Positions 28,766 through 36,347 of a stretch of 64,000 nt of DNA are shown here, one piece after another. How positions within the stretch are numbered: position 1 is the stretch's first letter; each line of letters starts with the position of its first letter. Location of the stretch: assembly GCF_055900595.2 (NCBI RefSeq), contig NZ_CM148325.1; one strand, 5' to 3'. A program made the position numbers and the translations under genes. Under the pieces are notes generated by a model that was not told the origin of the DNA, searched no databases, and saw nothing but the letters and a program-made list of their open reading frames with translations.

Positions 28766-28785
28766 ATAACACCTGTAATAAATAT

Positions 28786-28809
28786 CCTCCGGCATAGCCG
28801 GAGGTTTTT
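28786..28809 (+). terminator. IS200 end hairpin with T-tract (cctccggc-ata-gccggagg-ttttt)
   Basis: Perfect 8-bp stem plus TTTTT inside the IS right end; would terminate fhuE read-through; copy B equivalent at 35617-35640. Confidence 0.5.
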
Positions 28810-28885
28810 CAAATGCGCCTGTAAGGCTCTGTTACCAGCCGCGCCCTAACAGGCGCATACGATCTGACATTTGCATTCAACTTCG

Positions 28886-29344
28886 TTACTTACGGCCCGT
28901 AAACGGGCTGCCCGGATATGGAATCGATAACTGCTCCCCCATTTTATCCTCTTCAAGCTGGTGCTTTATGTAGTCCTGTATCTTCGCCGTGTTCTTACCC
29001 ACCGTATCGACATAGTACCCTCGGCACCAGAACTCCCTGTTTCTGTATTTGAATTTCAAATCCCCAAACTGCTCGTAAAGCATCAGACTGCTTTTCCCTT
29101 TCAGATATCCCATAAAGCCGGATACGCTCATTTTGGGTGGGATTTCCACAAGCATATGGATATGATCTGCGCAGCACTCTGCTTCCAGAATCCGTACGCT
29201 TTTCCACTCACACAGCTTTCTCAAAATACTGCCTATCGCCCTACGCTTCTCTCCGTAAAACGCCAGTCTTCGGTATTTCGGCGCAAAAACTATGTGATAT
29301 TTACAGTTCCAGCGGGTGTGCGCTAAGCTCTTTTCGTCCCCCAT
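28886..29344 (-). CDS. tnpA: IS200 transposase TnpA (Y1 HUH family)
   Basis: ORF 28886..29395; ATG at 29344 gives MGDEKSLAHTRWNCKYHIVFAPKYRR...HIHMLV (HUH)...CRGYYVDTVG (catalytic Tyr), ~152 aa. Confidence 0.92.
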   Translation of the reverse strand: MGDEKSLAHTRWNCKYHIVFAPKYRRLAFYGEKRRAIGSILRKLCEWKSVRILEAECCADHIHMLVEIPPKMSVSGFMGYLKGKSSLMLYEQFGDLKFKYRNREFWCRGYYVDTVGKNTAKIQDYIKHQLEEDKMGEQLSIPYPGSPFTGRK

Positions 29345-29420
29345 TGGGACCCCCTTTTGATTTCTTGTTTGACACTTGCAGTTGCCAGACCGCAAGGTGT
29401 TTTAACAAATCAAAAGGGGT
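29345..29420 (-). promoter_or_regulatory. IS200 tnpA 5' leader stem-loop that occludes the ribosome-binding site
   Basis: In tnpA sense, ccccuuuugauu pairs with aaucaaaagggg, which covers the SD immediately upstream of the ATG; described for Salmonella IS200. Confidence 0.55.
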
Positions 29421-29456
29421 TTTAATAACTGGCTCAAAGCTGAAAGCTTTCCGGAA

Positions 29457-29480
29457 CCCCCAGCCTAGCTGGGGGTTTTC
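29457..29480. terminator. IS200 left-end perfect hairpin (ccccc-agcctagct-ggggg)
   Basis: Perfect palindrome followed by tttt on the plus strand; IS200 ends carry hairpins that block impinging transcription. Confidence 0.5.
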
Positions 29481-29489
29481 TGTGCACAA

Positions 29490-29512
29490 AAAAGGCAGCC
29501 ATCTGGCTGCCT
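29490..29512 (-). terminator. ptsG rho-independent terminator
   Basis: In ptsG sense, ggcagccagatggctgcc followed by a T-run, then the IS200 end. Confidence 0.7.
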
Positions 29513-29535
29513 TAGTCTCCCCAACGTCTTACGGA

Positions 29536-34728: not shown

Positions 34729-35538
34729 CTAATTCGGGCGCTCACAAAGTGGGGCTAAATATTCATATAACGTTGCTGACGAAAAGGAGACATCGCCACA
34801 GGCACGTACGGGCATCACTGGCATTAACGCATTACAAATAACCATCTCATCTGCCTGCAACGCCTCTTCCAGAGTGGCTTGCACTTCGACAAGCTGATAA
34901 GAGGATTGTGCCAGTAAACGGATACAGAATTGTCGCATAATGCCGTTAACACCTGCCTGCTCTAGTCGCGGCGTATAAACTACATTGCCCTTCCGCCAGA
35001 ACAAATTAGCCGCACAGCATTCCGTAACCCACCCTTCGCTGTCAAGGACCAGCGCCTCATCAGCGTTTGTCTGCTCAAGATGAGAGCGGATCAATACTTG
35101 TTCAAGCCGATTAAGATGTTTAATACCTGCAAGATGAGGATTGCGCCCCAGCCGCACCGGGCTTAGCGCCAACATCATCCCCTCGTTACGCAAACGATCG
35201 TAATGTGCAGGATAAGCCGTAACGGAGAGAATCCGCGTTGCCGGTCCGCTGTTCAATGTGCTGTACCCTCGCCCGCCACTACCGCGACTGATCACGACCT
35301 TCAGCACACCATTCTGCTGTTCTGCTGCCAGCGTTTTCATCTCTTGTTCAAGCTGAGGCCAGAAGTCACAGGAAATCATCAACCGCTGACAAGCATCCTG
35401 TAGTCGCTGGATATGTGCCGATAACAAACTGACTTTACCGTCGATAACTCTGGCGGTGGTAAAACAACCATCACCAAACTGCGTTGCTCGATCGCTTACT
35501 GCCAGCGATTCCTGCTTATGACCGTTAATTAAGAACAT
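34729..35538 (-). CDS. pabC: Aminodeoxychorismate lyase
   Basis: 269 aa, [31 protein letters not shown]...; PLP fold-type IV. Confidence 0.95.
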
Positions 35539-35606
35539 ACCGGCTCCTTATCAGAGAATTGTTAGTGTGGCAGCATGTTCACTACAGAACAAGTCGGAAT
35601 AAAAGC

Positions 35607-36320
35607 TAATAAATATCCTCCGGCATAGCCGGAGGTTTTTCAAATGCGCCTGTAAGGCTCTGTTACCAGCCGCGCCCTAACAGGCGCATACGATCTGACA
35701 TTTGCATTCAACTTCGTTACTTACGGCCCGTAAACGGGCTGCCCGGATATGGAATCGATAACTGCTCCCCCATTTTATCCTCTTCAAGCTGGTGCTTTAT
35801 GTAGTCCTGTATCTTCGCCGTGTTCTTACCCACCGTATCGACATAGTACCCTCGGCACCAGAACTCCCTGTTTCTGTATTTGAATTTCAAATCCCCAAAC
35901 TGCTCGTAAAGCATCAGACTGCTTTTCCCTTTCAGATATCCCATAAAGCCGGATACGCTCATTTTGGGTGGGATTTCCACAAGCATATGGATATGATCTG
36001 CGCAGCACTCTGCTTCCAGAATCCGTACGCTTTTCCACTCACACAGCTTTCTCAAAATACTGCCTATCGCCCTACGCTTCTCTCCGTAAAACGCCAGTCT
36101 TCGGTATTTCGGCGCAAAAACTATGTGATATTTACAGTTCCAGCGGGTGTGCGCTAAGCTCTTTTCGTCCCCCATTGGGACCCCCTTTTGATTTCTTGTT
36201 TGACACTTGCAGTTGCCAGACCGCAAGGTGTTTTAACAAATCAAAAGGGGTTTTAATAACTGGCTCAAAGCTGAAAGCTTTCCGGAACCCCCAGCCTAGC
36301 TGGGGGTTTTCTGTGCACAA
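35607..36320 (-). mobile_element. IS200-family insertion sequence, copy B (714 bp), same orientation as copy A
   Basis: Matches 28776-29489; flanks diverge at 35606/28775 and 36321/29490. Confidence 0.9.
35717..36175 (-). CDS. tnpA: IS200 transposase TnpA (Y1 HUH family), copy B
   Basis: Protein identical to copy A; same RBS-occluding stem-loop at 36176-36251. Confidence 0.92.
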   Translation of the reverse strand: MGDEKSLAHTRWNCKYHIVFAPKYRRLAFYGEKRRAIGSILRKLCEWKSVRILEAECCADHIHMLVEIPPKMSVSGFMGYLKGKSSLMLYEQFGDLKFKYRNREFWCRGYYVDTVGKNTAKIQDYIKHQLEEDKMGEQLSIPYPGSPFTGRK

Positions 36321-36347
36321 GAAAAAAGGCCCGCAAGCGGACCTTTT
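36321..36347 (-). terminator. fabF rho-independent terminator
   Basis: In fabF sense, ggtccgc-ttgc-gggcc followed by ttttttc, then IS200 copy B. Confidence 0.65.

Follow-up and report, generated by a model that had tools for sequence, protein, structure and literature searches.

The association of IS200 with terminators is already known in kind. In Yersinia pestis, the related IS1541 was reportedly found by Odaert et al. 1998 (J Bacteriol) next to terminator-like stem-loops at 8 of 14 sites, which are said to have been proposed as hot spots. The published layout of IS200 itself is that of a 707 bp element with a left-end terminator at nt 12-34, followed by a 5′UTR stem-loop and an antisense sRNA. 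A 2025-26 preprint describes terminator-like sequences as over-represented upstream of IS elements, most strongly so for IS200/IS605, and reads them as limiting transposase expression. Mechanistic work on IS608 and ISDra2 has shown that the top strand leaves the donor as a single-stranded circle, which then integrates 3′ of a motif of 4-5 nt in single-stranded DNA, with a preference for the lagging-strand template. In IS608, CL (TTAC) and CR (TCAA) are read by the guides GL (AAAG) and GR (GAAT) lying 5′ of each hairpin, T:A pairs included. In both systems it is the transposon ends that carry the hairpins, and the target motif is recognised through base pairing; in IS608, the two hairpin sites of the transposase dimer are already occupied by the transposon ends. 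Target hairpins are not mentioned in the mechanistic papers on the family that were consulted. Thus the general statement of the original prediction, that IS200/IS605 elements recognise hairpin-containing targets, is not the established model for the family (IS608, ISDra2); for the IS200 subgroup, a target next to a hairpin is, as described below, an empirical regularity.

The window, that is, the whole stretch of 64,000 nucleotides that was analysed, corresponds to the E. coli fhuE / ptsG-ycfH-holB-tmk-yceG-pabC / fabF segment in the orientation opposite to K-12. It contains two repeat stretches (28776-29489 and 35607-36320) whose 714 shared bases are 100% identical, and each of them harbours one copy of an insertion sequence (copies A and B, Table 1). 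The sole gene of each copy is tnpA, whose product matches Pfam Y1_Tnp (PF01797, E 7.9e-37, profile positions 2-121 of 121), with the HIH motif (DHIHMLV) and the C-terminal Y (QDYIKHQ) readable; its RefSeq label, transferred by coordinates from the annotation of strain Z0117EC0005, is IS200/IS605 family transposase. The left-end hairpin (CCCCCAGC...GCTGGGGG) is a perfect 10-bp stem situated 11 nt from the IS end, and in copy A it is the element's own terminator. Unlike it, the right-end hairpin has a stem of 8 bp, and the right end is itself terminator-like. In both hairpins, AAAA is present 5′ of the C-run. Terminal inverted repeats are absent, the end sequences TGTGCACAG... and ...ATATTTAT not being inverted copies of one another. 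Since the Y1_Tnp match, both end hairpins, the match to Rfam STnc490 and the 711-bp insertion without target duplication all agree, the two elements can be assigned to ordinary IS200 (IS200 subgroup, IS200/IS605 family). The STnc490 matches (Hfq-binding sRNA / IS200 5′UTR region) fall on the tnpA-sense strand in both copies. About 70 nt separate copy B from the pabC start codon downstream of it (35538-35609), and the insertion splits the pabC-yceG(mltG)-tmk-holB-ycfH cluster, essential genes included, from the fabF side.

Table 1. Coordinates of the two IS200 copies, the host terminators and the insertion sites in the window
Feature	Position	Strand	Basis
ptsG stop codon TAA	29536..29538	(-)	sequence and annotation transferred from near-identical Z0117EC0005
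ptsG intrinsic-terminator hairpin, AAGGCAGCC-AGAT-GGCTGCCTT	29492..29513 (GC core 29494-29511)	(-)	terminator scan, fold
Site A target tetranucleotide TTTT	29489..29492	(-)	empty site in K-12 DH10B; TTNT consensus
IS200 copy A, 711 bp	28778..29488 (nominal)	(-)	repeat extent and empty site; left end at high coordinate
Copy A tnpA, 152-aa Y1/HUH transposase	28886..29344	(-)	ORF list, Pfam, RefSeq annotation
Copy A left-end subterminal hairpin, AACCCCCAGC-TAG-GCTGGGGGTT	29455..29477	(-)	fold, -11.7 kcal/mol
Copy A right-end subterminal hairpin, CCTCCGGC-TAT-GCCGGAGG, then ATATTTAT	28786..28804	(-)	fold, -10 kcal/mol, and terminator scan
Copy A Rfam STnc490 match, IS200 5′UTR region	29354..29477	(-)	146.4 bits, E 9e-31
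fabF stop codon TAA	36369..36371	(-)	sequence and transferred annotation
fabF intrinsic-terminator hairpin, AAAAGGTCCGC-TTGC-GGGCCTTTT	36324..36347	(-)	terminator scan, fold
Site B target tetranucleotide TTCT	36320..36323	(-)	empty site in Z0117EC0005; consensus
IS200 copy B, 711 bp	35609..36319 (nominal)	(-)	identity with copy A, flank comparison with Z0117EC0005
Copy B tnpA	35717..36175	(-)	identity with copy A
Copy B left-end hairpin	36286..36308	(-)	identity with copy A
Copy B right-end hairpin	35617..35635	(-)	terminator scan
Copy B Rfam STnc490 match	36185-36308	(-)	146 bits

From the order of features on the minus strand, it is clear that the two copies sit in the same setting. At site A the ptsG stop codon is followed by the hairpin, the T-run and the IS left end TGTGCACAGAAAACCCCC..., and at site B the fabF stop codon is followed by the hairpin, TTCT and the same left end TGTGCACAG. 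In the nominal register, the TTTT of site A forms the last four nucleotides before the IS and is part of a six-T run (29488-29493). The hairpins start 22 nt (ptsG) and 21 nt (fabF) from the stop codons, and both were scored as terminator-like in a consensus scan. Folded as single-stranded DNA and compared with shuffled sequences, the ptsG hairpin reaches -11.2 kcal/mol (z -4.3) and the fabF hairpin -7.5 kcal/mol (z -3.0). Each is a GC-rich stem-loop with a T-run after a co-oriented stop codon, and by these features both qualify as rho-independent terminators. As originally predicted, then, the two junctions are present at the expected positions behind the ptsG and fabF terminators and in the same polarity, with the same IS end adjoining the T-run in the sense of the upstream gene, and the geometry of the second junction (fabF hairpin, TTCT, left end) does repeat that of the first. 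Because a strict hairpin-plus-T-tail criterion is satisfied by 0.7% of random positions in the survey loci described below, we estimate a probability of ~5e-5 for both junctions to follow terminators by chance, and a coincidence is therefore unlikely.

The sites were also compared with their unoccupied counterparts. Site A is empty in K-12 DH10B (CACCTG-TAA-AAAAGGCAGCC) and site B in strain Z0117EC0005 (AAAAGC-TAA-GAAAAAAGGCCCGC). No target-site duplication is found in either comparison, in agreement with the prediction; the copies are simple 711-bp insertions, and the short motif sought 5′ of the insertion point is TTTT at site A and TTCT at site B. T residues common to the target and the IS ends leave the IS boundary ambiguous by 2 nt, so that it can be drawn in three registers offset by 1 nt; for copy A, 28777-29487, 28778-29488 (nominal) and 28779-29489 fit equally well. 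In these terms the unoccupied target is TTNTT, the IS starts with (T)TGTG and it ends with ...TTAT(T). The tandem junctions of L099, L100 and L116 and the 54 right-end flanks of the survey are compatible with every register and do not narrow the boundary, because the target TTNTT, the right end TTATT and the left end TTGTG align in one register.

Strain Z0117EC0005 carries IS200 in 17 places, among them site A, where it matches the window at 100% with the IS included; no more than 9 genomes have an insertion at site A, whereas the 5,426 complete E. coli genomes together hold roughly 15,800 IS200 places. When the IS is set aside, the window and this strain differ by 3 mismatches in 15,314 bp and by 0 in 2,393 bp, and at site B the IS is the only difference between them. 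Since its flanks differ by just 3 of 17.7 kb from those of the empty-site strain, copy B can be dated as a recent insertion in a very close relative of Z0117EC0005. The same fabF/pabC site carries IS200C, a variant ~5% divergent and with one extra T at its right end, in 220 other complete E. coli genomes, where its left end occupies the same nucleotide in the same orientation as copy B (L003, NZ_CP146681.1, about 880-1600) and its flanks bear that lineage's own SNPs. We also considered whether copy B could have been acquired by recombination from an IS200C-bearing lineage together with gene conversion, and rejected this, since the flanks are those of the empty-site strain and unlike those of the IS200C lineage, and since the IS is 100% identical to copy A and ~5% different from IS200C. 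The comparison of flanks and elements thus indicates that two IS200 variants have struck the same nucleotide of the fabF terminator independently, which makes it a recurrent hot spot.

To see how general this placement is, we have surveyed other IS200 left-end junctions in two sets. For the diverse set, species-representative genomes were scanned with the left-end hairpin alone (AACCCCCAGCNNNGCTGGGGGTT), giving at least 120 loci and, after orienting and duplicate removal, 104 distinct left-end junctions among the matches listed. It takes in Ruminococcus, Oxalobacter, Peptococcaceae, other Bacillota, Mailhella/Desulfovibrio, Vibrio, Enterococcus, Tatumella, Dickeya and Edwardsiella, as well as 24 junctions with the IS1541-like left end TGTGCCCAGAA. 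For the E. coli-type set, metagenome contigs were searched with an exact 42-mer internal to the left end, yielding 92 loci with 67 distinct flanks and spanning roughly 60 distinct terminators. The survey covers elements that keep the exact left-end hairpin of the search pattern. The hairpin was measured as the minimum free energy (MFE) of the 40 nt upstream, with a cut-off of -8 kcal/mol or lower, together with the distance from the last paired G/C. This measure replaced an earlier detector (contiguous stem, followed by three or more tail nucleotides of which no fewer than 60% were T), which caught 58 of the 104 junctions because A:T extensions of the stem swallowed the T-run.

An upstream MFE at or below the cut-off was found at 101 of the 104 diverse junctions among the matches listed (median -18), leaving three of those listed without a strong hairpin, and at all 67 E. 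coli-type junctions a hairpin with a T tail is present (MFE -11 to -27). Among controls, the same cut-off is reached at 22% of 3,120 positions with the same 6-mer in the same loci and at 35% of random positions; the difference between junctions and matched 6-mer controls gives a Fisher p of 6e-60. On the right-end side there is no hairpin excess, the 40 nt downstream being at background (mean -6.2, 22% at or below -8). Insertion next to a hairpin is therefore seen at about 98% of the 171 distinct junctions, in several phyla, and on the left-end side only. The proposal that terminator hairpins are the preferred target and that the polarity is fixed is thus upheld by both sets. In the E. coli-type set, 51 of 66 sites have the end of a co-oriented ORF (80 aa or longer) no more than 200 nt upstream, the median distance from stop codon to junction being 43 nt, so that at these 51 of 66 sites the hairpins can be regarded as genuine gene-end terminators.

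The geometry is also narrow. The distance from the foot of the GC-core stem to the junction is 4-8 nt at 60 of 67 E. coli-type and 88 of 104 diverse junctions (among the matches listed). The motif at the junction is TTNT, with T at -4 in 166, at -3 in 147 and at -1 in 169 of the 171 junctions among the matches listed, position -2 being free; TTTT is the commonest form (94 of the 171 listed), followed by TTAT, TTGT and TTCT. At the other end of the element, 53 of 54 full copies have the right-end hairpin followed by ATATTTAT and T, and so close in TTAT, akin to the TTNT before the left end; the one exception of the 54 has ATATTTTT.

Head-to-tail tandems of IS1541-like elements occur at L099 (about 300-360), L100, L102 and L116 (start). 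In these the right end (hairpin plus ATATTTAT) runs straight into the left end of the following copy, and in L100 and L102 the two left ends are 710 nt apart; the tandem junction of L116 has one extra T, which is also present in the right end of IS200C. Such tandems represent either the use of a right end as target or retained dimers resembling circle junctions. Across L004-L123, IS200-like elements have the same 20 specified bases in the left-end hairpin (AACCCCCAGC...GCTGGGGGTT), whether they come from Bacillota, Gammaproteobacteria, Betaproteobacteria, Desulfovibrionaceae or a Saccharibacteria MAG, and the 11 nt outside the hairpin differ by group, always in the form TGTnnnnnGAA. At L088 (about 685-735), a left-end-like hairpin has palindromic flanks (TTGTCTATAGAA-hairpin-TTCTATAGACAA) and is bordered on each outer side by a terminator-like hairpin; it may be what is left of a solo left end or of left ends placed back to back. 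L125 and L131 have a common sequence after the right end and different terminators before the left end, and L131 and L165 have a common terminator, with a 2-nt offset at the junction and different right-end flanks, a pattern that suggests IS200-mediated rearrangement or adjacent independent insertions. The left-end hairpin sequence was also met without an IS200 context, in L048, L050 and L085 (Pseudomonas) and in L008, L013, L056, L090 and L093; in the Pseudomonas loci it lies directly 3′ of a conserved gene end (GACGAGTGA), and it appears to be an ordinary terminator with the same stem by coincidence.

How might this placement arise? The reading we favour, and consider reasonably probable, is that the target has two parts: a T-rich motif, which would pair with an A-rich stretch of the element serving as guide, and a hairpin next to it. 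Each copy would have entered the sense strand of its host terminator in single-stranded form, and its left end lies 4-8 nt past the GC stem, directly behind the T-rich motif; an unoccupied target consists of a hairpin, 0-4 nt and TTNTT. As the first part, the T-rich cleavage motif would base-pair with the AAAA guide just 5′ of the left-end hairpin. By analogy with IS608, we infer such a guide-target pairing for IS200, in which AAAA would predict T-rich motifs at both ends; following the same logic, the right end would also be expected to close, as it does, in TTAT after its own AAAA-hairpin. There is no variation of the guide among the surveyed elements. As the second part, a stable hairpin in the single-stranded target would serve as a structural determinant; the hairpin would set the position, and the hairpin and T-run together the polarity.

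A first alternative is that selection does all the work: IS200 would insert at any T-rich motif, and only copies lying just after terminators would persist, as these leave genes and promoters intact and are protected from read-through transcription. Indeed, every surveyed copy is a survivor, all the sites having passed natural selection, and positions after a terminator are plausibly neutral. Insertions of IS200 and IS1541 inside coding sequences, selected in the laboratory, are known as well (hisD984, inv); these mean that the hairpin is probably a strong preference and not an absolute requirement. If selection alone were responsible, however, any downstream position should be tolerable, yet 148 of the 171 junctions among the matches listed lie 4-8 nt from the GC stem, and IS200 already has a left-end terminator of its own. 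Furthermore, none of the 67 E. coli-type sites is located elsewhere in an intergenic region or inside a gene, the very recent copy B conforms to the rule, and exactly one nucleotide has been used by two IS200 variants. From the 4-8 nt spacing, the restriction to the left end, the reuse of a nucleotide and the compliance of a recent copy, we take the hairpin to be part of the target, and regard selection by itself as an improbable explanation.

A second alternative is a coupling to transcription termination, in which insertion takes place into the sense-strand T-tract, single-stranded in an RNA polymerase paused at the intrinsic terminator; the hairpin would then be an RNA signal stalling the polymerase and not a DNA structure. 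This would account for insertion always into the sense strand of the upstream gene, for a junction 4-8 nt after the stem, near the point of transcript release, and for the 51 of 66 hairpins that mark the 3′ end of a co-oriented gene. In E. coli, roughly 55% of genes are co-oriented with replication, and the 39 of 49 surveyed sites at which the flanks have a positive GC skew in the IS orientation, and which thus lie on the G-rich strand, exceed this share, although the measure is confounded by co-orientation with the upstream gene. In the window, the GC skew of the plus strand is negative and the IS top strand is the G-rich strand for both copies; from the K-12 map, we take the G-rich strand here to be the lagging-strand template. 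The documented source of single-stranded DNA in this family is likewise the lagging-strand template, which speaks against the polymerase as the source, whereas the clustering of IS608 insertions in highly transcribed rrn operons, known from the literature, speaks for it. Also against it, 15 of 66 sites have no nearby co-oriented ORF of at least 80 aa. On balance a transcriptional origin seems unlikely to us; the single-stranded DNA would instead be provided by the lagging-strand template. As for a preference for T-runs alone, by which an A-rich guide merely seeks out T-runs that occur mostly at terminators, the T-rich junction motif (TTTT at 94 of the 171 junctions listed) and the T-rich targets predicted from the guide analogy would fit, but it is largely refuted and very improbable, since a comparable hairpin is present at 22% of the same-6-mer controls versus 97% of the junctions, and since 5.9% of the positions preceded by TTNT satisfy the strict terminator criterion.

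Returning to the two-part target, the hairpin would then be read by the transposition machinery and not merely tolerated by it. A more specific form of this proposal is held more tentatively, as an idea with slightly less than an even chance of being correct: in the IS200 subgroup, the transposition mechanism would read a DNA hairpin resembling an intrinsic terminator, 4-8 nt upstream of TTNT^T, as a near-obligatory part of the target. Three candidate readings of the hairpin can be put forward. It may extrude in the lagging-strand template and so present the adjoining T-run; the terminator may partly mimic the element's own right end; or, as above, the sense-strand T-tract may be exposed in an RNA polymerase paused at the terminator. 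In the more specific form of the proposal, the hairpin might work by imitating the right end (hairpin plus ATATTTAT) or by making a third hairpin contact with the Y1 transposase. To our knowledge, no binding site for a third hairpin has been described in transposases of the IS608 type. A full mimic of the right end, that is, a terminator with its own A-rich guide 5′ of the stem, was checked and rejected, since in 22 of 67 sites the 4 nt preceding the GC core contain a single A or none.

As to the window itself, its two IS200 copies are ordinary ones in a location typical of the element, and their main use is as strain markers. More generally, there is a near-invariant rule for the IS200 subgroup across phyla, namely insertion a few bases past a terminator hairpin, in the sense strand and after TTNT; what the survey adds is the strictness and exact geometry of an already known habit. 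The rule offers a simple explanation for the harmlessness and persistence of IS200, and can guide the annotation of IS200 ends and the prediction of hot spots. It also raises the biochemical question of how a target hairpin is sensed, whether by the Y1 transposase or through the state of the DNA at the terminator. If the hairpin is indeed read mechanistically, target choice in IS200 would be distinct from the motif-only rule of IS608 and ISDra2; this would explain why IS200 is benign and long-lived, and a use in safe-site insertion could be envisaged.

Compared with known systems, the elements described here are most readily placed beside IS1541, with which IS200 shares a 152-aa Y1 transposase, the 707-711 bp size class, a left-end terminator hairpin, the STnc490/art200 region and the absence of a duplication. 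IS1541 is likewise reported to be located downstream of genes beside stem-loops resembling rho-independent terminators. The rule found here appears much stricter and more precise than the one reported for IS1541, extending to about 98% of 171 junctions in several phyla, and it includes a fixed polarity, the 4-8 nt spacing, the TTNT(T) motif and a right-end side without a hairpin. With IS608 and ISDra2, IS200 has in common the single-strand 'peel and paste' mode, a motif abutting the left end, a related motif at the right end, the lack of a duplication, a presumed guide 5′ of the left-end hairpin and a putative bias towards the lagging-strand template. IS608 (TTAC) and ISDra2 (TTGAT) need the motif only, whereas the motif of IS200 is looser (TTNT) and is accompanied by an adjacent hairpin. 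Insertion sequences that target REP/BIME elements (ISPpu9, for instance) and the REP-associated Y1 transposases (TnpA-REP/RAYT) also have an extragenic palindromic hairpin as substrate or target; these systems act on specific repeats (REPs) and not on any GC hairpin with a T tail, and mostly belong to other transposase families. In functional terms, the nearest parallel is the class C (IIC) group II intron, which is inserted in sense orientation just 3′ of the stem-loops of rho-independent terminators by a structural cue combined with a very short sequence match, a habit interpreted as a self-limiting 'safe' niche. These introns are RNA-based retroelements (ribozyme plus reverse transcriptase) that rely on EBS/IBS pairing, with unrelated chemistry and proteins, and the parallel with IS200 points to the stretch immediately behind a terminator as a safe niche that has been exploited convergently.
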